From assembly GCA_048128005.1 (NCBI GenBank), contig JBEUKZ010000007.1, positions 184,570 to 204,569 on the forward strand: a stretch of DNA of 20,000 bases. Reading direction: 5' to 3'. The stretch comes from Veleropilina oligotropha (Eukaryota). Below the pieces are notes generated by a model, which had not been told where the DNA came from, did no database searches, and worked only from the letters and a program-made list of their open reading frames with translations. A program made the position numbers and the translations under genes. Below, piece by piece: positions 1 to 19,274 of this stretch. Position 1 is the stretch's first letter. Every line of letters begins with the position of its first letter.

Positions 1-1218
1 TGGCTCACAATTGATCAATAGACTCACGGAGCTGTTTCAATCCATGTCGACCCAAGAGAAACTTTCGCAGAAATTCAATGTTGCTTCTATCGTCCACCTG
101 TTTACGAGAAAAGGAAACCAGCAAGCATGTGACAATCACCGCGGCATCTCACTGCTCTTCATTACAGGGAAGATTCTGGCCAGGATTTTTCTGAACCGTA
201 TGAATCAACACCAGGAGCAAAATCTGCTTCAAAAGAGTCAATGTGGATTCAGGCCGAGCCACAGTACAGCGGATATGATCTTTGCTGCGCGCTAACTACA
301 AGAGAAATGTCAGGAGCAGAACATCGAACTCTATACCACTTTTGTAGATCTGACCAAGGCCTTCGACACTGTCTGTCGTGAGGGACTCTGGAATATCATG
401 GCCAAATTCGACTGGCAAAGTTCATCTCACTGGTCTGGCAATTTCACGACGGCATGCTATCGTGCAGGACGGTGGAGAAAATTCAGAGTTATTCCCTGTA
501 ACAAATGGCATCAAACAGTGCTGCATACTTGCCCCACACTATTCGGTATGATGTTTTCGGCTATGTTGACAGACGCTTTTCGTGATGGCAACATCGGATT
601 CAGTATCAGGTACCGGACAGACGGAAAGCTCTTTAACGTACCGAGGCTGCAGGCGAAAACCAAACCCCAGGAAGCCGCTGAACTCATTTCATAGGAGGTG
701 CAAGTCAAATGAAAGGACAAAGTTCCAGATACAAAGATACTCCAGAGGGCAATGGTCAAGCGTTCTCAACTCTGGTGGGCAAGTCACGTGCGCCGCATGT
801 CCGACAAACCTCCCGGAGAAAATATTTTACAACGAGCTAAAGGACGGCAAGCGCTCTCATGGGGACAAAGGAAGCGGTACAATGACACATTCAAAGTTAC
901 CCTGAAGTGTTGTAGCATCGATCCAAACTCTTGGGAATAATCTGCACAGGACTGCACCGCCCGGTGCACCCTGATCAAGTCTGGACTGACGAACTACGAA
1001 TCAAGGCGCGTGGTAGAGCCGAAGAACAAACGTCAACAGCGAAAAAGCAGGGCGAGTACCACTCCTCAGCAGGCTCACCATCGACAATTAATTGCATGCC
1101 CTCATTGCAAAACACAGTTCAGAGCGCGGATTGGACTTACCAGCCATCTTCGCATACACAACCCCAATGATATAAGAAATCTTGGTCGTCTTCGGCAGCG
1201 AAGGACGTACATCATCAT
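1..1218 (+). mobile_element. Degenerate RTE-clade (BovB-like) non-LTR retrotransposon: 3' part of RT ORF and 3' end
   Basis: GISLL..GKILARIFLNR, SQCGFRP..ST.DMIFAAR, FVDLTKAFDTV.REGLW, LFGMMFSAML, YRTDGKLFN..RLQAKTK, C-terminal CPHC..F.ARIGL.SHLR.H and a short (CAT)n tail. Has frameshifts and an internal deletion near 665-700 that removes the (F/Y)ADD motif. Truncated by the window edge. Confidence 0.9.
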
Positions 1219-3549: not shown

Positions 3550-4660
3550 CTGGGGCGGATCCAGGGGGGTCCGTGAGGGTCGGACCCCCCCCCCCCTTGA
3601 AATAAAAAAAAACAAAGTAATAAAATCCGTACACCTTTATGTGTAGTTAGGGGTATAGGGTTATTTTAAAGAACCGTTTCTTAAAGCATATGCATTAAAA
3701 CTTTCCTCCCAGAATCTCAACGCCCCCGCTTGGAGCAGTATTAACACTTAAAAAGTTGATATATTTGCTATTCAACCTCCAACTTAATATCATATCCAGG
3801 CTAAACATGTGGGAAATGCGCCTACGATAACGGATTTTTTTCTTTCTCTGTGTTGGCCGCCCTTTGATTCTGATAAAACAAAATCTAAACGCCTCTATTG
3901 TCAGTTAATCTTAGCACGCAATTACACCAACCGCTCTAAAGAGCGAGATGAAAGAATGCCGGCACAGCTGGAATACCACTTCCGAGGACCAACGGCCCGA
4001 AAACCTCATCGACTGTTTGAGGAAGACAGATCCAGATATATTCCCCAATATATCTGCATTACTGAGAGTTGGATGCACACTTCCAGTCGGCAGTGCCGGA
4101 GCTGAACGCTCGTTCTCGTGTTTCCGGAGAGTCAAGACCTACATCCGCAACAGAATGGGCGAAGAGCGCCTCTCAGGACTGTGTTTGATGAATTTGCATC
4201 AGGACCTGATAATTGAAACTGATGCCGTCCTGAAAGAGTTCATTTCAGTCAACAACAGACGGATGTTCAGTCGATTGAAATTGAATTGAATTTGTTGTGA
4301 TCAATATCACCTTTCTAGTACATTCATAAAACGTATACGATCGATGTTCTTTTGGCTTAATTTCGTGGTGCCAGGGCCGTAGCTAACATGAGAACAGGGG
4401 GGGGGCAGTTTCCCCCCCCCCCCCTGAAATCTGGAAAACGCGGACGTAAAACTAAAGTGATTCACATTAAATAAAACGCTTAGAGTGCAGGAGGGGCCGT
4501 TTCGTAAGAATGAATCCAAAATGTTCTTGTGCCTTGGGGAACCATGGTCCCCAACGCACAACCGTTGACTTAGGGTTCCGATAATCACACGGGCCCTGGG
4601 TGCCCTTTTGGGATTCTCCCGACCCCCCCCCCCCTTTCGAATTTCCTGGATCCGCCCCTG
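3550..4660 (+). mobile_element. Internally deleted hAT DNA transposon with terminal inverted repeats
   Basis: TIRs CTGGGGCGGATCCAGG (3550-3565) and CCTGGATCCGCCCCTG (4645-4660), 15/16 match, enclosing a transposase C-terminal fragment. No 8-bp TSD visible. Confidence 0.7.
3915..4289 (+). pseudogene. hAT transposase C-terminal dimerisation domain fragment (P52rIPK/ZMYM1-like group)
   Basis: FPNISALLRVGCTLPVGSAGAERSFSCFRRVKTYIRNRMGEERLSGLCLMNLH is the hATC signature. In-frame TAG at 3912 and no upstream transposase domains. Confidence 0.88.
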
Positions 4661-6025: not shown

Positions 6026-6117
6026 CGCTTGGCACATTGTTGGAAGTTGAAAGATTGTCGATGAGTCATTCACCCAAGGTTGAAAATTCTCGAACCATAG
6101 AACATCTTCAAAATTAT
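6026..6117 (-). CDS. EPDR exon 9 (end of domain 2)
   Basis: atttgcag|(N)[30 protein letters not shown]|gtaagt. A second GTAAGT donor 25 nt downstream would extend the exon to 6001. Confidence 0.85.
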
Positions 6118-7297
6118 CTGCAAATAATATTTATATATAAATGAATCGATGGAGATTTTATGATTGTTGTGGTATATCAAATGAGTTCTACAAAATTGGC
6201 TCGATGGAGCAACGACGATGACTCAGCATCACGGAAGTCTATTGGTCGAAGTGATTTCAATATCCATTCTGGCTTTACCTCCACAATCAAATAAGCATTT
6301 GCATCCGGCGCTTGACTGCTGTAACAAAGAGGAGTGGGTTCGAAACTTCGGTTGGGTATACTTTGCTCAGTTAACAGTCAGAGATGTCCACAGCTGGTCG
6401 GCGAGGGTGAGTTTGCTCGGGCAACCGGGCTTTCCTCCAGCGATAATATGGATATATCCCGGTATGAACTGGACGTAGTAAAAACAGGATATTAAGCATT
6501 GATCCAAACAAAAAACTAAGCCATGGCATATTCTAAAGATCTAAAAGTTTCACACCAATACGTTGAGTAGGATTTTAGTTAGGCCTATTATCACTTTGTT
6601 TAAGCAAGAACAGCTATTTTGAACAAACTCACACAAGCAAACATGACAATTACAATATAGTAACAGTAGTAAGTCATAAGTAATCAACTTTTCGCAATAT
6701 AGAGCATGACAATTAAACGCTGCCACTGAATTATGAACCAGATCTTACTTGAACCGAATTGGGCTTGAATGACCTGTGTGACCGGTACACATCCGTCCCT
6801 GGTCACCGTCATAGTTACGGGTATATTAGCATCGAAAAAATCCCATGTATCGACCACAAACGGGTTGCGCCTGTCTCCTAGATTGGCGGTGTTGGTGAAG
6901 TTAGCGTCATCTGTAAGATTGTATAGCAATAAAACAGTATCCAAAGGAAAGAAACAAAGAACAATTCTAAAACATAAATAGGCTGATATAACTGATAATC
7001 CCATTGCTAATTTTTGCAATATGATATGTTTAACTGATAATCGGTTGATATATCTAATAATCGGTTGATATAACTGATAATCGGTTGATATAACTTATAA
7101 TCGGTTGATGTACTTGATAATTCACTGATATCAATGATACTCTGTTGAAACCATTTGTAGACAAACGCATCATAATTATAGAACCAAGCTAGATACAAGA
7201 TATTTATTTGCGCTTAATTTTTACAATAGTGTACACAGATCCACAGCACGGTAATACATATAAACATATGTATATAATATGTTTATATGTGTGTGTG

Positions 7298-7349
<52 letters not shown>

Positions 7350-10300
7350 TGTGTGTGTGTGTGTGTGTGTGCGTGTGTGTGTGTGTGTGTGTGTAAATAG
7401 ATTGAGTGGTTGGTTAAGAAATGTGTTATAGTATACCAATATAAATTAAAAGTGCGGGACCGCTGAAGTAACGATACGTTTTCTAATCAGCGACCCCCTA
7501 GATAATTGTTTAATTTGTTGACCGAGACGGTTATAAAATGGCAAGCAGAACAGTGTACCGGTATCCTATAATATATATATTTTCAGAAAGTATCAATAGA
7601 TTGATTGATCGTGATTTGTCCACATGTATATAGTGTTAAGATTTGCGTGAATTAATTATTGCTCAGTTGATAAAAGTTGTTTCCTCTATTTACATTTAAA
7701 CGTACTCAATTCTAGATTTTTCAAAGATGCTGGAATTTCAGACCATATCTTCACACCTCGAAACTCTAATGTCATTTTACCAACATCTGTCATTACTTTC
7801 GTAATTGATAATTAGTTCTTGCATATCTAGTATTGTATGTGTGAAGTTCAGCTGCAGATTTGAAATAATTAGAACATGCCGGCTGAAGTTTATTATTATG
7901 ATATTTGTGCATTATTACTGCAATTTGATATTTAAATATATCGTCTATTTGTAAGTTAACTGTTAATTTATTTGTTATTAGCCATTGATCAATTTTTATT
8001 CATAGTTTACTTTTATTTCGAGATCCTTAATATTTTTTTCATTTAAAAAGAGATTTGTATCATCGGAAAAAGTCTAACATATAAGTCTGTGCAATTAGGT
8101 AAGTCATTAATATACATATAAGAAACAATAATGAGCCAAATGTTGACCCCTGGGGGACTCCGCATTTCATAACACTAGAGTCAGACCTTTTATTATTAAC
8201 TTCTGTGTAATTTTGCCGATTTGTCAGACATGATTTGAAAAGGGTATGAACATTTCCTCTGATACCGTATTGATGCATTTTATCGAGTAATATATTATGT
8301 TGTACGGTATCAAACGCTTTGGACAGATCTAAGAATATTCCACAGGTTATGCCTTTTTTATCCATTGAATCCAATAATTTATCACGTATTTCTGCTAAAG
8401 CTAATGTTATAGAATGACCTTTTATAAAGCCAAATAGTAATTTATATAAAATAGTGTGCTTATCTATGTAATCAGTTAATCGCTTGTGCAAAAGTTTTTC
8501 GAGAATTTTTGCAAAGAGCGACAGTAAAGATATTGGTCTATAATTTGTTGTCTCGTCTGACGAACCACTCTTATAAATAGGTATGATTTTTGAACATTTC
8601 AGAACATCAGGGAAAATTCCTTCAGATATTGATTCATTGTATAATTGTTGCAGCAGAGGAGTTATTACATCGGAATACATTTCAATCACCTTTATTGGAA
8701 TGTCTTCTGGGCCATTTGCTTTTTTGAGTTTAAAAAGCAAATTTCATTTTCAGAATGTTAGGCGAAGAAGTAACTCGTGGAAGCAGATTAATAAAATTCC
8801 CAATTTATAAATTTATATCTGTTAAATCGGACTACAACGTGCATATATAAAGGTGTCCAATTATCCGGATTTCGTTTCGTAAAGATGTTGACCCGAATCC
8901 GTCCCGTCATATGGAATTTAACGCCATTTTATCTGACACTTTTATATGTAGTCTTTGTATAAATTTTTGCTGGTTTAGACATTATCAAATCATTAAATAA
9001 AAAGTAAGATATAGATACAAATGTTCAAAATGTCGTTAATTAATAGAAGGCGGCCGTCTTTCATTCACGGCGATGCTGCACGTCGGTTTCTGGGGGTTTC
9101 GTCCATTTCCATATAAATATATATTTTATTCATGAATACAATAATTTATCAGAACAAAAAGTTAAAACTAAGAGCATGTACTGTATTTTTAAATATAATA
9201 TATATATGTAGCTGTTATTATGGTACTGTAACATTACATAATAGACCAGGGCGGAACTTCCAGTTTCAATAGGCCTATATACCATGGCTTCGTTCACGTT
9301 AAAATTATGCTCATAACTGAATCGATTATCCTATAACTGAAAATTGCATTTTAACTTGTGGATCATCATGCGAATCATCAAATACACACAATACCCCATT
9401 TGTAGCTTTCTTTCGATAGTGAATCACGTTAAGAAGAGGAATCAGCATCTCTAGATAAGCATGTATTACGTTTGTATAGTAAATAAATTATGCAATTGTA
9501 CCTACCCGGTATGCAAGACAGAAACTTTGTTGGTAAGTGAAAAGATTGACATACGCCGTCAGTGACTCTATATTGAATGTTCTGTAAAGATTTAGAGTAA
9601 CGAATCATATAAAAGGTGTCAAAATATTTGTAAAAATTTTCGTATAATTATGTAGATCCTAAAATGGTGTTTTCAATTCCGTTTTCATATGGCCCAAGGG
9701 AATGGAAGGAAAGGATCTATGCTTTACGTCCTGTATATTTCAAACCATCATTTGGTTCAAAGCAGGACATGTCCATATTATCGCGGGAGGAGAGCCCGGT
9801 CGCCCGGGGAAACCCGCCATCTCCGACAACTGTGACTCATAACATAACAAATAATGCTACTACTGTTCGCGTCAGCGGAATAAGCCAGTGATTTTCGAAG
9901 TCCACATCCGAAACCACACAACTGTCGAAGGGGCCATATGGCTCAAGGGCATACGACTCCCAAACATAGATGTTTAAGTTAAAAAAGTAGCATGATTTAA
10001 ATAAAATTGACCGCTAAGGAATGTAGCGGAGATAACATTTAAGTTCTGAAGTCGTTATATTTTCCTGACAGGTTTCTGAAGGATAATTTTAACTGGAATC
10101 TCTACTATTTATATCGCTTGTTAGGTAATAGATAATACATTACCAGTCAGAGCGTTATAATTCACATAACAGACCGAGTCGGAACGAGGCTGTTATGTTA
10201 TAACGCCGAGGGGTGCCAGTTGTATTATCTGTTATACACACAGCGAAAATCTATTGTAAATTGCAAGCAGTAACCCCTTAAAACATTCATGTCATGCTCC

Positions 10301-13300
10301 AGAAGGAGATATGGTGGGAAATTGAGAGTCGACTCTTCCATTGGCAAGCGGTCAAATCTATTGTCGCTCCAATTAGTCTGGCCGGCTAGCCGAATTAATC
10401 ATTGTCTGAAAACAATGGGTCAATTAACATTATGAGGTCTATTGTTCACATAAGTTTCCCATGGTGTGTATGTAATAGTTAATACACTGCCAGCCCGAGT
10501 GATATATGCAACTAACAAACGGGTGGCAGCTGTATTATCTGTTATACACACCATGCAAATGTATTGTAAGTTGCAAGATGACATCCCTTAAAACACGAAA
10601 TTGCCCACCATATCGTTCTCTATGGCCTGATATGAGAATAGACTCTTCCATTGGCTGCTTGCCAAATCCTTTGTTACTGCCCAGCTCATGACAAGCAACC
10701 CGGGTAACCCATTGTTATCTTCTTAAGTGGAACAACGGAGTAAGTAACACTGTGAGACCTATTGTTCAAATAACCAACCCCATGGTGTGTATTTCGTAAG
10801 ATCGTTTGGCCGATTGGAGCTGAACATTGCAACGGATTCGTTGTATTGACCCATCAAGCAGCGAACATAACCAATATTACGTTATCTACTTTTGGCCAAT
10901 GGGGTGGGCGCAAATATGCAGTCGTGTAACTTAATTTTTGCAACATATGTTTTATTGTTCACTTCCAGGTTTTGACGAAAAGTGACATTAGCCGAATGTC
11001 GATCACATAGTATTTGGTTATCACGTTATGTTCGCTGTTTGGCAAATTAAGTATTTATCGTGTTATCGCAAGACTTTGTAGACATGGGCAGAGAATAATC
11101 ATTGCTTTTCGCAAGAAGTAAATCTATAACTAAATGCCTGACGTATTCACAGTGAATTCCAATAATAAATTTCGTAATATAACACTTCATTATATAATGA
11201 AGTGTTATATTACGACGCTATGAATGTTTAAAAATGTAAACACAATACGTTAACCGTATTGACATCTTAAAGGAATATTTTACATGATAAAACAGTATAT
11301 TTACTTAGATATGTTGTGATCAAAACAGCGATAGTATAATATGTATACGGTGAATACAGCCATTCATTACGTACTGTGAAGATTGGTTTGCTGACGACTC
11401 TGAAAGTGACGTCACTAATTTATGCACAGTTATAACATAATATTATAGTGAGGCGACGCAACAACGGACTGGCTAATATCAAGTTACTCATCACGGCAAG
11501 TAAAGAGAAAAGCGAATAATTGCATAATATAAGTATTAAAAAATCCATGTTGCATTAATGTTTTTATAGCTTTCAAAAACATACATTAACTAAAAATTTG
11601 AGTACAGTTAACTAACACTTTAAAACGCACGAAAACTCACAGTATTGTAATCCTGAAGGAATTTGACGTGCGTGCGATTCGCGTCCCTGTCGTCAATGAT
11701 ATCACGGACAATCATCTTGAGTGTGCTATCAACGTACATAAATCCAGTGTCCTGTTAATGCATAAAATTTCACTTTTATAACAAATATGTACAATTATAA
11801 CATCATGAAGAAACTACATATTGTCTCTCAATAGAGCAAGTAAAATTGTGGAGTGAAGATAATGTTGGACATATTTGCATATATTTCCTTTGTCTCAATT
11901 CTAAGTAATATTAATAATTGTATGTATCAATCGACCGGTGACATACGTGAAGTTGCGTATCAACATTGTTGGCTGAATTGTAAATGTCGCCGTTTTCCAC
12001 GATTTTGGCGGTCCATTGATCTGCAAAACAGCAACGGGGAGGAGTCGGGTTGCAGAAGTCCGGAACATCAAAGACGCTGGGATCTGAGATTCCATCCTTA
12101 ATGTTAGCGTAAGTTCGCTCCGTAACAAATGTATCTGAAAAACCCCCAGATCTGCCTTAATCCAATAACGAAAGAAGCACGAATGCGTCTTCATTGTAAA
12201 CGCAATATATAATCTCATATCATGTCATGATGATATAATATTAACAGGTGATAACTAGAGTTAACAAGCGGGACGTCGATCCCATAATATAACTTTGGTG
12301 AGCTTTATCCAGACTACGGGACAAACAGAGATATATAGGTGCATCTAACATCTGGGACCAAAATCTGAGACAAATGAATAGACAGACATTATCAAATGTA
12401 GCTTATTTTGACTAATATAATCATATCATAATTATTATTATAAATGTAACATGTCTACTACTGTTATTGTTATCTCTCGCGCGGGGGGGGGGGGGGGGTG
12501 GGGGTGATTCTCGTATAGCGATATCGATGTAGCTCGTTACCTGCATTCTCCACTCTCCAGGCATAGAATACACGAAACTGCTAGGCTTACTAATTTATAC
12601 TTTGTGACGCGAAATCATGTCTCTTCGCAGGAGAGTATGTTAACTGCTTACTGTCTGCAAGCTCCACTCTGATGGTCAACGCTACGGGATAACAATGTTC
12701 AACGGTGGTGAAGGCCGAATATGTGGCGTTATAACTTGTAAATGTCCAAGAGTTCACTGCTGTTGGATGCGACGCCATTCCAAAGTAACTTGTTCCATGG
12801 AATGTTGCGTCATCTGCAAATGTATATTTTTGCAAAGCTTTAAAGCATGCCTTTATACAACTCTCTAAACATTAAAATCATAGACATATATTGCAAAAAG
12901 ATTATGTAACGTTTACATTCTTACCTGAAATACAGGTCAGCATAGGTATGACCATTTCATTTCTTTGACAAGTATTTGCCTCTAGGTCGACGCTGTAAGT
13001 ATATCCCTGAAATGACGTGACATCATAGATTGGATAATTTGAATACAATCATAATAAGCCTCTTATTCCACTAGAACTTACTGTGCTAGTACCAAGATAT
13101 TTTAAACTAACTGGATCTGCCCGCCGGTGGCCGTACACCCCGGCGCCAAGTGGACATGGCCCAAACGCTATTTTTTAGCCGTGCTCCCATATAATAGCTT
13201 TGCCCGAAGTTATGCGTGTGCATTGCGTGACAGCGGAATGAAAGGATTAGAGTTTTAAGTATTAGAAGATGAAAGTAAATTAATTAAGCAACAGGTCAAC

Positions 13301-15962
13301 GCCCATGTTAGCTATTTCTGCAAATTACAGATCATAGCTAACACCACCAATATAAAGATATAACATGATAAATGATAAATGCTGTCACCTAGCTACGTTT
13401 CGGTTAATCCAATAATATCAAACTTGACAACTTCAACGGTAAGGATATCGATATAATTAAGCGACAAAACTTGTAACAATTAAATAATTGTAAATAGGCT
13501 ATGTGGCTCCAGTAAGGTTGGGTAACAGTGGGTTACTATCTACATCTACACACTACAAAGAAGCACCCAACACAACTCTCATGTTATGGAATATTAATTT
13601 GGAAAGGTCATGAGGTTTAAAATTTCTTTTCGCGCAAATCGATGAAATTCATATATCTCTGATTGCTTTACACCCCTGTAAAATGACATGCATGCCTCCA
13701 TAGCGCACCTGCATGAGCGTATAGCATGCTTCATTTCACAAATAAATAAAGAATGACACAAACAAGGCGAAAATTAAAAAATATATAGGTATATAGTATG
13801 CCAGGCGTTTCAGACATGTGGATTTATCTGACACGATAGTTAATAACCGATCGTCACTCTTGGTTTATAAATATCCTGCTTTCATGTGTCTTCCTTTTAT
13901 TTCGTGATATATAAGGATGTCTCTACTCTTTGTAGGCCTATACCATTCAAATCAAATTCGAACAAAATTCTAGACATTCCATGGTTTTGTCGACTGTTTG
14001 AAAATAATATTGTAGGAAATCATTATCATGTGGCACGTCGAGAAAGTTTTAAAAGCAATGCTAATTTATTAAATATTTAATTGTTATGCTTATGAAACTA
14101 CACAGCATCATCGTTTCGAACATGAAATTCAAAAACCTGCTTGAAATATCGAGACAATTTGACGAGTTTGAATTATATATCGTAATTTGGCTAGAGTATA
14201 ACTGCACGCACCTTCACGTAATAGTGAGTATTACTGCTCGCACCTTCTAGGAGTCTAAAGAATAACGGCAGTGGCTATGCGAAACAATATCTGTTCTCAC
14301 TTTCTCATAGTCCAGAGCTTACCTTCATACACCTTAATATAGTTACAATTATACATGCACGCACATCCTCATATGTAGGATAACTGCACCTACATTAAAT
14401 TTGCGTAGTCCGCGGTATAAATGCACTCACCTTCGACTAGTCTATAGTATACTTGTACGCACCTTCGCGAGTCCAGAGTATACATGCACGCACCTTCGCG
14501 AGTCCAGAGTATATCCGCACGCACCTTCGCCTAATCCAGACTATCAGTTCGCTCATCGCACTCACCGCACCAAGGCCAGCGAATAAGTCAACGCACCTTC
14601 ACGTAGTTCGTAGTATAACTGCACTCACCGTCGCATAGTCCTGAATGTATCGAGTTTTGTTGATTTTCATGGCAGCGTCTCCATCTATAACTATCGACGA
14701 GCGCTTTCCAGCGGCATCGTAAACCAAATGTCCAAATCTCTGAAATCAATCATCATAACTATGGTCGTTACCTGTTTTTACCTCTTATTTCGTATAACGA
14801 TGCAACTACAGAACGAAGAGAGGAAAGGTCGAAAAGATATCAAAATACTTGTATTGCGAAAGATGACAACGTGAACCTTTCAAAACGACAATTTCAGCGT
14901 GTCGCTGTATCGTTTTCGTGCTTTCACGTTATCGTCTTTTGCATAAAAATGTCGCCGTGGGGTATTGGCTTCCTATCATGTTGTCCTCTTGGTGGGACGA
15001 CATGACATTAATTAATCAGCCATCATATAGATAAATGATGTTGTGTTTCTTTCATAACATCCAACATAGGCATGATATTCCAAGGACAATATAAGGTGTG
15101 TGCAACGGATTAACGTTATTTACTTGCGATATCCTATGTTCTAGTTCCTAAGAAGAATTAATCTTTGAACTGTGCAACGGATAATAAGAAAAGTACGGGT
15201 ATGTTGATGTAAGATAACACAATTGAGTGTGATCTAATATGTTGTATATGTACCTAAGAACTTTTTTATTTTTGTGCTGGTGATGCTACTATATGTATGT
15301 TCGGAAATTTATGTGTGTATTAACCACTGTTTTTATACGAATACACGAAGATATGTGTCTGTGTATATATGGACACAGCAAACGAATTGACTTAAAGTCT
15401 GACATCTGATCTATCATGTTAGCGTGTGTGTGTCTGTATGTCTGTGCGTATGATTGCAATACGTAGTTTTTCATATTCAGCTTATCTCAGATTTACCTGT
15501 CACTGCCCAACTGTACTTAATATTTGGCGAAACGATTCACATAGGCTTAGTCCTGTTTTCGAATCGCCACAATTTTGATACATATTACTTTTTCCGATAT
15601 CATATATTATTCCTTGTAATATCAACAATATGTTTGCTCCTAATGCTAAACTGAATAAAAATATTGTTAATCTAATCTAAAAATCTAATATGTCTTTAAA
15701 TAAAGATCATCAATGAAGAACAAAATGGGAATTAGCGTGATTGTTTCAATCATCCGTCTATATACGCACGCCAAATTTGCAGTCATGGCCGCTTTTGAAG
15801 TATCAGCATACCTACCTTACGCTGTCGATAATGATCTTTGGGAAGGTCATAACTAGCGCCGTTTGAGATGACATCAGCCTCCCATTGCTGAGGTACGCAG
15901 CATTTATCCGGGTCTGTGGAAACACAGACCGCGACTAGCAGTAACGCGATGAATGCTCTCAT
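6026..15962 (-). CDS. Secreted ependymin-related protein (EPDR) with two tandem ependymin domains. Spliced CDS join(15816-15962,14629-14739,12925-13006,12652-12813,11947-12134,11641-11751,9506-9581,6749-6910,6026-6117), plus probable terminal exon near 5176/5196-5213
   Basis: Manual splicing gives an open 377-codon frame with all GT-AG introns: [31 protein letters not shown]...YDAAGKR...[18 protein letters not shown]...CISDDATF...W...CYPV...[37 protein letters not shown]...QDYNT...C...CIPDDANF...W...GCVPV...FENF...IFQLPTMC. Motifs CC.P.QWE, C.P and GI.DPSVF..P..C match the ependymin family (recognised from memory, no search run). Confidence 0.9.
6245..6512 (+). mobile_element. tRNA-derived SINE, copy 2 (EPDR intron 8)
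   Basis: GAGTGGGTTCGAAAC B-box. CACAGCTGGTCGG...GGGCAACCGGGCTTTCCTCCAGCGATAATATGGA...AAGCATTGATCC aligns with the reverse complement of 9711-9840. Confidence 0.7.
6749..6910 (-). CDS. EPDR exon 8 (paralogous to exon 4)
   Basis: tcttacag|(D)[53 protein letters not shown]+A|gtaaga; 162 nt, phase 1-1; lies within track ORF 6684..7019. Confidence 0.9.
7031..7130. repeat. 20-bp minisatellite, ~5 copies
   Basis: Unit TAACTGATAATCGGTTGATA with a few substitutions; partial unit near 6985. Confidence 0.9.
7228..7394. repeat. Compound (GT)n/(GCGT)n microsatellite
   Basis: Directly visible. Confidence 0.97.
7655..8745 (-). mobile_element. 5'-truncated, internally deleted CR1/L2-group LINE (RT fragment) in EPDR intron 7
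   Basis: [56 protein letters not shown], frameshifted YINDL..LFSDD, then a C-terminal remnant HTYNTRYAR...[11 protein letters not shown]. Confidence 0.88.
9506..9581 (-). CDS. EPDR exon 7 (paralogous to exon 3)
   Basis: ctttacag|[25 protein letters not shown]+G|gtaggt; 76 nt, phase 0-1. Confidence 0.88.
9711..9930 (-). mobile_element. tRNA-derived SINE, copy 3 (EPDR intron 6)
   Basis: Reverse complement GTGGACTTCGAAAATCACTGGCTT matches the copy 1 head. CACAGTTGTCGG...GGGCGACCGGGCTCTCCTCCCGCGATAATATGGA...AAGCATAGATCC matches the copy 2 body. Confidence 0.7.
10127..10792. mobile_element. Two head-to-tail copies of a ~320-345 bp hairpin-ended element
   Basis: 10210-10471 aligns with 10521-10791 (TGTATTATCTGTTATACACAC...CCCTTAAAACA...GACTCTTCCATTGGC...CTATTGTTCA...CCCATGGTGTGTAT). 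Each copy begins with a TAATAG.TAATACA...TGTATTATCTGTTA hairpin. Confidence 0.75.
10855..11041. mobile_element. Small MITE-like element
   Basis: Perfect 13-bp inverted repeats CAGCGAACATAAC (10859-10871) and GTTATGTTCGCTG (11025-11037), extendable to 16/17. TSD not evident. Confidence 0.5.
11172..11215. repeat. Perfect 44-bp palindrome
   Basis: TCGTAATATAACACTTCATTAT|ATAATGAAGTGTTATATTACGA, with no spacer and no mismatch. Confidence 0.95.
11641..11751 (-). CDS. EPDR exon 6 (paralogous to exon 2)
   Basis: ttaacag|[37 protein letters not shown]|gtgagt; 111 nt, phase 0-0. Confidence 0.9.
11947..12134 (-). CDS. EPDR exon 5 (end of domain 1, linker, start of domain 2)
   Basis: tttttcag|(N)[62 protein letters not shown]|gtatgt; 188 nt, phase 1-0. 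Confidence 0.92.
12652..12813 (-). CDS. EPDR exon 4
   Basis: tttgcag|(D)[53 protein letters not shown]+A|gtaagc; 162 nt, phase 1-1; lies within track ORF 12590..12835. Confidence 0.9.
12925..13006 (-). CDS. EPDR exon 3
   Basis: catttcag|[27 protein letters not shown]+G|gtaaga; 82 nt, phase 0-1. Confidence 0.9.
14191..14641. repeat. Degenerate 31-32 bp minisatellite overlapping the exon 2 donor
   Basis: Unit ~GCACCTTCGCGAGTCCAGAGTATACATGCAC (period 31 at 14461/14492/14523), about a dozen diverged units. Confidence 0.85.
14629..14739 (-). CDS. EPDR exon 2
   Basis: gatttcag|[37 protein letters not shown]|gtgagt; 111 nt, phase 0-0. Confidence 0.9.
15816..15962 (-). CDS. EPDR exon 1 (signal peptide and start of domain 1)
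   Basis: ATAATC-ATG start; [49 protein letters not shown]. Donor AAG|GTAGGT is phase 0, as required by exon 2 and matching the homologous donor of exon 5. Confidence 0.9.

Positions 15963-18159: not shown

Positions 18160-19274
<1,115 letters not shown>

Follow-up and report, generated by a model that had tools for sequence, protein, structure and literature searches.

The window analysed here, i.e., a stretch of 20,000 nt of the Veleropilina oligotropha genome (contig JBEUKZ010000007.1), is AT-rich eukaryotic DNA (GC content about 0.30-0.48) littered with transposon debris. Its minus strand, read between positions 15962 and 5921, carries a multi-exon gene that encodes two full domains of the ependymin-related protein (EPDR) family in a single chain, and the junction between these domains lies within one exon.

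Organization of the gene

Nine exons, whose ends were located by a script, splice to an open frame of 1236 nt (411 codons; Table 1). Their borders are canonical, with a pyrimidine-rich tract and AG preceding and GT following the exons; the donor of exon 1 (AAG/GTAGGT) is of phase 0. The hidden multi-exon gene proposed in the original prediction is in this way recovered as nine open exons, with a tenth one possible, and the start codon claimed for it, ATG at 15962, agrees with our model of exon 1. At the N-terminus, Met-Arg and a run of 12 hydrophobic residues (residues 1-15) stand directly before the CC motif of the mature protein and look like a signal peptide; a single hydrophobic signal peptide had been claimed, and none was found before the second domain. 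Two units of about 180 residues follow downstream of this stretch.

Two options are available for the end of the gene. When exon 9 is read through, a tail of 36 residues follows the last Cys, up to TGA at 5923-5921. When the GT donor after 6026 is used, exon 9 is spliced to a putative tenth exon; the search for it yielded nine acceptor-like sites with short open tails downstream of 6026, none of them preferable. Position 6026, previously given as the gene end, is indeed the last base before this optional donor, but the frame itself continues to the TGA codon.

Table 1. Exons of the two-domain EPDR gene and parts of the junction between its domains
Feature	Position	Strand	Length (nt)	Content
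Exon 1	15962-15816	-	147	ATG at 15962; putative signal peptide (~15 residues); CC motif of domain 1 and its N-terminal strand
Exon 2	14739-14629	-	111	Domain 1; starts and ends in phase 0; equal in length to exon 6
Exon 3	13006-12925	-	82	Domain 1; small exon with two Cys (residues 99, 111); ends in phase 1
Exon 4	12813-12652	-	162	Domain 1 core; C-x-P motif; same length as exon 8
Exon 5	12134-11947	-	188	Fusion exon: C-terminal part of domain 1, linker, CC and first strand of domain 2
Last Cys of domain 1	12054-12052	-		In exon 5
Linker NPTPPR	12051-12034	-		In exon 5
CC of domain 2	12033-12028	-		In exon 5
Exon 6	11751-11641	-	111	Domain 2; counterpart of exon 2
Exon 7	9581-9506	-	76	Domain 2; small exon with two Cys; counterpart of exon 3
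Exon 8	6910-6749	-	162	Domain 2 core; C-x-P motif
Exon 9	6117-5921	-		End of domain 2; last Cys at 6034-6032

Assignment of both halves to the EPDR family

The spliced protein was compared with a profile of 190 positions, built from five EPDR domains of three mollusc proteins and containing no window sequence. The three source proteins exceed the gathering score of the Pfam Ependymin family (PF00811, 32.3 bits), with 107.1, 80, and 42.8 bits. The profile matches the spliced protein twice and nearly from end to end: residues 17-195 (domain 1) with profile positions 2-190 at 82.7 bits, and residues 199-375 (domain 2) with profile positions 3-190 at 92.5 bits, while the best of 1000 shuffles reached 10.3 bits. 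All six Cys columns of each half line up with the Cys columns of the mollusc EPDRs. Cysteine profile 2 of McDougall et al. 2018 is defined by six Cys at alignment positions 23, 24, 94, 107, 148, and 186 and by Pro at position 150 (PMC6280359); six Cys and a Pro two residues past the fifth of them are likewise present in each half. Since the external-profile matches are near end to end and the Cys pattern is that of profile 2, both halves are, as judged from sequence comparison, complete EPDR domains. This agrees with the architecture originally put forward, namely a signal peptide followed by two complete ependymin-like domains and a linker between them.

The Pfam scan was run exon by exon, on single exons. 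Ependymin was the sole family matched on exons 4, 5, and 8, in each case below the cut-off: exon 4 reached 19 bits over profile positions 45-97, the first half of exon 5 reached 19.5 bits over positions 106-128, and exon 8 reached 17.1 bits over positions 45-98. The remaining six of the nine exons gave no Pfam match in these single-exon scans. Two non-overlapping matches had been expected with the Pfam model; the mollusc EPDR profile gave two, and the Pfam model applied to single exons returned sub-cut-off scores only. The family background given in the original prediction, namely single-domain EPDRs of about 200 aa with a LolA-like fold, which form homodimers and have expanded in marine invertebrates, is in line with published accounts (PMC6280359, PMC6608618, PMC6363788).

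Similarity between the two halves

The halves can be aligned from the CC motif to the last Cys, with 53 of 169 residues identical (31%) in a local alignment and 29% identity in the MAFFT alignment, close to the roughly 28% estimated earlier by hand. BLASTP of one half against the other gives an E-value of 2.5e-23, and the alignment score of 207 stands 35 standard deviations above the mean of 500 shuffles (mean 31.6, standard deviation 5.0, maximum 51). The six Cys previously claimed for each half were all located, at residues 21, 22, 99, 111, 154, and 195 of the first half and at residues 202, 203, 278, 290, 333, and 375 of the second. In both halves they form a CC motif, a pair in the small exon, a C-x-P motif, and a terminal F..P..C. 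The exon structure is repeated as well: the lengths of paired exons of domains 1 and 2 are 111/111, 82/76, and 162/162 nt, and the four introns of each half fall at identical alignment columns (33, 74, 101, and 155) in identical phases (0, 0, 1, and 1). A tblastn search of the window with both halves detected no further copies outside the gene.

Junction between the domains

Between the last residues of domain 1 (…PDFC) and the first of domain 2 (CCFADQW…) lie 18 nt, that is six codons, in one exon and one frame. These codons encode the hexapeptide NPTPPR, which had been named as the only linker between the domains and which was found at that place within exon 5. The 62 residues encoded by exon 5 include zero stops and zero Met. 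The absence of a stop codon and of Met across this exon means that domain 2 has no start codon or signal peptide of its own, and the position of the junction inside one open exon means that every transcript covering the last part of domain 1 continues into domain 2.

These features bear directly on the possibility that our model wrongly joins two separate, adjacent EPDR genes, as annotation errors in this family usually do. The hallmarks of such an error, i.e., a stop codon, a start codon, or a second signal peptide between the domains, are lacking at the exon 5 junction, and an uninterrupted junction exon is not the usual mis-merge of adjacent genes. Intron 4, read by eye, shows no hidden in-frame start for domain 2, and the sole ATG-led open reading frame around it (11901-12224) lies in a different frame. 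A mis-merge is very unlikely already from the DNA, and as an explanation of the locus as a whole we regard it as hardly credible.

A splice-acceptor-like sequence is present within exon 5. At positions 12028-12050 of the minus strand, the codons of PPRCCFAD form a pyrimidine-rich tract that ends in TTTTGCAG. Splicing of exon 4, which ends in phase 1, to this site would be in frame and would remove the last part of domain 1 together with the CC motif of domain 2. The site may be a chance occurrence or a minor alternative acceptor.

Preservation of domain 2

All five exons of domain 2 are open, their splice sites, the six Cys, and the C-x-P motif are kept, and domain 2 scores above domain 1 against the external profile. 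Exon 8 can also be compared with an open reading frame on a genomic contig from another sample (P0002): 49 of 53 residues are identical, and the four differences are N to G, V to I, M to L, and Q to E. The flanking intron reading is visibly less alike between the two and contains indels. The conservation of exon 8 relative to the flanking intron points to selection.

An alternative is that the fusion exists in the DNA only and gives rise to no full-length protein, the locus being a recently formed, unprocessed pseudogene or else giving transcripts that end after exon 5, in which case domain 1 alone would be produced and the exons of domain 2 would be relics. The length of introns 6 and 7 (2.1 and 2.6 kb), the transposon debris in intron 7, and the uncertain 3' end of the gene would fit it. 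However, at the approximately 70% divergence of the two halves, relic exons would be expected to have decayed, whereas those of domain 2 are intact in all the respects given above and exon 8 is open and nearly identical in a second sample. We therefore consider this alternative improbable.

Relatives in the databases

The query of our exhaustive HMMER search was a 53-column profile of exons 4 and 8, and the search, its query being short, gives no census of the family. It returned ten proteins at E ≤ 0.001: P0002, three repeat proteins, and six proteins with Ependymin matches. Three of these six, which supplied the domains of the external profile, are above the Pfam cut-off, and all three are molluscan, namely Babylonia areolata XP_076460736.1 (P0004; LOC143293575, 632 aa, 107 bits in three stretches), Liolophura sinensis XP_064595690.1 (P0007; 232 aa), and Sinanodonta woodiana KAL3876403.1 (P0009; 288 aa, two stretches). 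P0009 contains one full EPDR domain and, past its last Cys, a second, nearly identical copy of the middle part alone. This copy reflects either a partial duplication within the gene or an artefact of annotation or assembly. P0003, P0005, and P0006 were rejected as relatives: they are long repeat proteins with no Ependymin match, and their scores are sums of many weak stretches.

Word-based searches of longer proteins gave, for exon 5, five candidates with none at E ≤ 0.01 and, for the exon 4/exon 8 profile, 27 candidates with one match, P0002. A word-based search with P0004 among proteins of similar length found no match besides P0004 itself among the 8000 candidates scored. Among solved structures, phmmer with exon 4 alone did not match EPDR1 and retrieved only designed repeat proteins, which were rejected as sums of weak stretches. 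In the ESM Atlas, exon 8 had no useful match (best score 0.76). Residues 250-632 of P0004 matched single-domain mollusc Ependymin clusters of 208-232 aa there, with no multi-domain cluster among the matches listed.

Comparison with known EPDRs

The domains encoded in the window are most readily compared with single-domain EPDRs of clade 2 and profile 2 (PMC6280359), such as P0007 and the first domain of P0009. Like these, the window protein has a signal peptide-like stretch and domains of about 180-190 residues with six Cys at the family positions and Pro two residues after the fifth Cys, and domain-wide identity amounts to 23-30%. As the nearest named relatives are all molluscan, the sequence itself points to a mollusc as its probable source, which at such identity values is no more than a lead. 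Unlike these, which have one domain per chain, it has two domains linked by six residues, the second one without a signal peptide.

The Babylonia protein also has more than one EPDR domain per chain, and the boundary between its domains 2 and 3, C-QPAPQK-CC, resembles the C-NPTPPR-CC boundary of the window protein. In contrast to the latter, it has three domains, of which the third lacks about nine residues after CIP. Its first junction is 46 residues long and includes a signal peptide-like stretch. The three Babylonia domains share 38-56% identity with one another and 22-27% with the window halves, and they form their own clade in a seven-row tree (97/97). This separate clade and the higher mutual identity indicate that the duplication in Babylonia was separate from that of the window gene.

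Vertebrate EPDR1 (MERP1), a secreted glycoprotein of the same family with available crystal structures, is described as a tight homodimer with two hydrophobic grooves. Its three intrachain disulfides link the N-terminal end with the C-x-P loop and anchor the C-terminal end at the beta3-beta4 loop (PMC6363788, PMC6608618). EPDR1 differs from the window protein in that its dimer consists of two separate chains and in its cysteine profile, which is that of clade 1 with an extra Cys (PMC6280359). The closest functional model for a two-domain chain is the sponge protein EPD-BCP1, a heterodimer of two different EPDR subunits that holds two carotenoids as ligands at the interface (PMC10470211). The subunits of EPD-BCP1 are, unlike the domains of the window protein, separate gene products with four conserved Cys each and no peptide linker (PMC10470211).

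Repeats and transposon remnants in the window

Intron 7 contains, in the orientation of the gene and outside of its coding sequence, a reverse-transcriptase fragment of a non-LTR (non-long terminal repeat)-type retrotransposon (8060-8743, minus strand; RVT_1, E-value 2.1e-24), as well as a minisatellite of about four copies of a 20-nt unit (7031-7148) just upstream of exon 8. A second reverse-transcriptase fragment of non-LTR type (2-694, plus strand) runs off the start of the window and occupies two frames (E-values 5.4e-06 and 8.6e-04). An open frame at 3915-4289 of the plus strand encodes the C-terminal dimerisation region of a hAT-family transposase (PF05699, E-value 3e-09) and is probably what remains of a transposon downstream of the gene. 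Another minisatellite, with 3.7 copies of a 31-nt unit, is located in intron 2 (14415-14544). Three simple repeats were noted: a (TG/CA)n run with interspersed GCAC units (7288-7394), an (AT)55 run (18385-18495), and, in intron 4, about 15 consecutive C on the minus strand (12484-12500). Similar stretches of about 100 nt occur on the minus strand in intron 8 (6380-6480) and in intron 6 (9720-9850), both reading ...IIAGG.PG.P... in one frame, and they probably represent a dispersed repeat resembling short interspersed nuclear elements. Another element is present at approximately 10200-10700 as two related tandem copies.

Proposed origin of the gene and pairing of its domains

We consider it probable that the locus is an intact gene of an animal, presumably a mollusc, for a secreted glycoprotein with two complete six-Cys EPDR domains per chain, which would have originated by fusion and whose domains would pair within the molecule. 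From the gene we infer also the expression, fold, and ligand of such a two-domain EPDR.

The linker NPTPPR is similar to the few residues that stand ahead of CC in mature single-domain EPDRs, and also in domain 1 itself (…DPDK-CC). This likeness suggests that the terminal exon of one tandem copy was joined with the first exon of another by an in-frame deletion. Such a deletion would have connected the final coding exon of the upstream EPDR gene copy with the initial coding exon of the one downstream, just past the signal peptide of the latter, with the loss of a stop codon, intergenic DNA, and the second signal peptide. NPTPPR would then be what is left of the short peptide at the mature N-terminus of that second copy.

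Each domain would be expected to adopt the LolA-like fold, with a curved beta-sheet and a hydrophobic groove. The original prediction had considered an intramolecular heterodimer or a polymer. Given that free EPDRs act as dimers, we propose that the most likely arrangement is a pairing of the two linked domains into a covalent heterodimer for hydrophobic ligands, for instance lipids or carotenoid-like molecules. By analogy with the known dimers, a fixed intrachain heterodimer carrying hydrophobic ligands appears to be the most likely state of the protein.

The fusion may also be real while the domains pair between molecules, giving domain-swapped dimers, chains, or networks, e.g., in an extracellular or shell matrix. 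The EPDR dimer surface is reported to be extensive (PMC6363788), EPDRs have been described as abundant in the gastropod shell matrix (PMC6003135), and the six-residue linker may be too short for pairing within the chain. No result obtained here contradicts intermolecular pairing, which relies on the same sequence evidence as pairing within the chain and differs from it in quaternary structure only. We nevertheless regard it as unlikely.

Several points weigh against an intact fusion gene with intramolecular pairing. The gene and its protein are predicted from genomic DNA, and the 3' end of the gene is ambiguous between read-through and a tenth exon. All Ependymin scores of single exons are below the Pfam gathering score. 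Multi-domain EPDR models in Acanthaster, Amphimedon, and Branchiostoma have been described as mostly prediction errors that lump tandem genes (PMC6280359). The two halves are grouped only weakly in the seven-row tree (76/85), and they are barely closer to each other (29% identity) than to other mollusc EPDRs (23-30%). The Babylonia protein is an automatic, uncharacterised RefSeq prediction whose first domain may be a merged neighbour gene, so that this model may be partly a merge. As to the predicted fold and pairing, an AlphaFold2 model of the Babylonia protein as a stand-in, calculated from an alignment of eight rows, was unusable (mean predicted local distance difference test 40.1, predicted template modelling score 0.28). 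The six-residue linker may also fall short of the gap that, in the EPDR dimer, lies between the C-terminal Cys of one protomer and the N-terminal Cys of its partner. Prediction of a complex of Babylonia domains 2 and 3 gave a score of 0.17 versus a mark of 0.34, and it speaks neither for nor against binding.

Significance of the two-domain architecture

Our full-text literature searches found no description of a genuine tandem-domain EPDR protein, and the main survey of the family treats multi-domain EPDR gene models as annotation errors (PMC6280359). As to the novelty of the architecture, on which the original prediction had left room for doubt, the literature holds no counterpart that we could find, but the databases hold one model with a comparable junction, that of Babylonia. 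Were the Babylonia model correct, EPDR pairs in a single chain would have arisen at least twice, a tentative conclusion given the small number of sequences, one of them an automatic model.

A further-reaching suggestion, which we hold to be rather doubtful as it stands, is that mollusc lineages made the EPDR dimer single-chain at least twice independently, in the window gene and in Babylonia, each time by fusion exactly at the last Cys with a six-residue remnant of the mature N-terminus. The product would be a fixed asymmetric heterodimer that could hold two different hydrophobic ligands in its interface or paired grooves, as EPD-BCP1 does. Should such a repeated single-chain origin be true, some of the multi-domain EPDR models discarded as errors are real.

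EPDRs are widespread secreted proteins of animals, and their ligands and functions are largely unknown. A natural single-chain EPDR dimer, if true, would show that dimerisation is central to the function of these proteins and would provide a ready-made heterodimer of fixed stoichiometry for structural and ligand studies. A real fusion would also correct the assumption that multi-domain EPDR models are annotation errors, and the gene would be a clean example of how a new protein architecture can arise by the fusion of tandem paralogues inside an exon.

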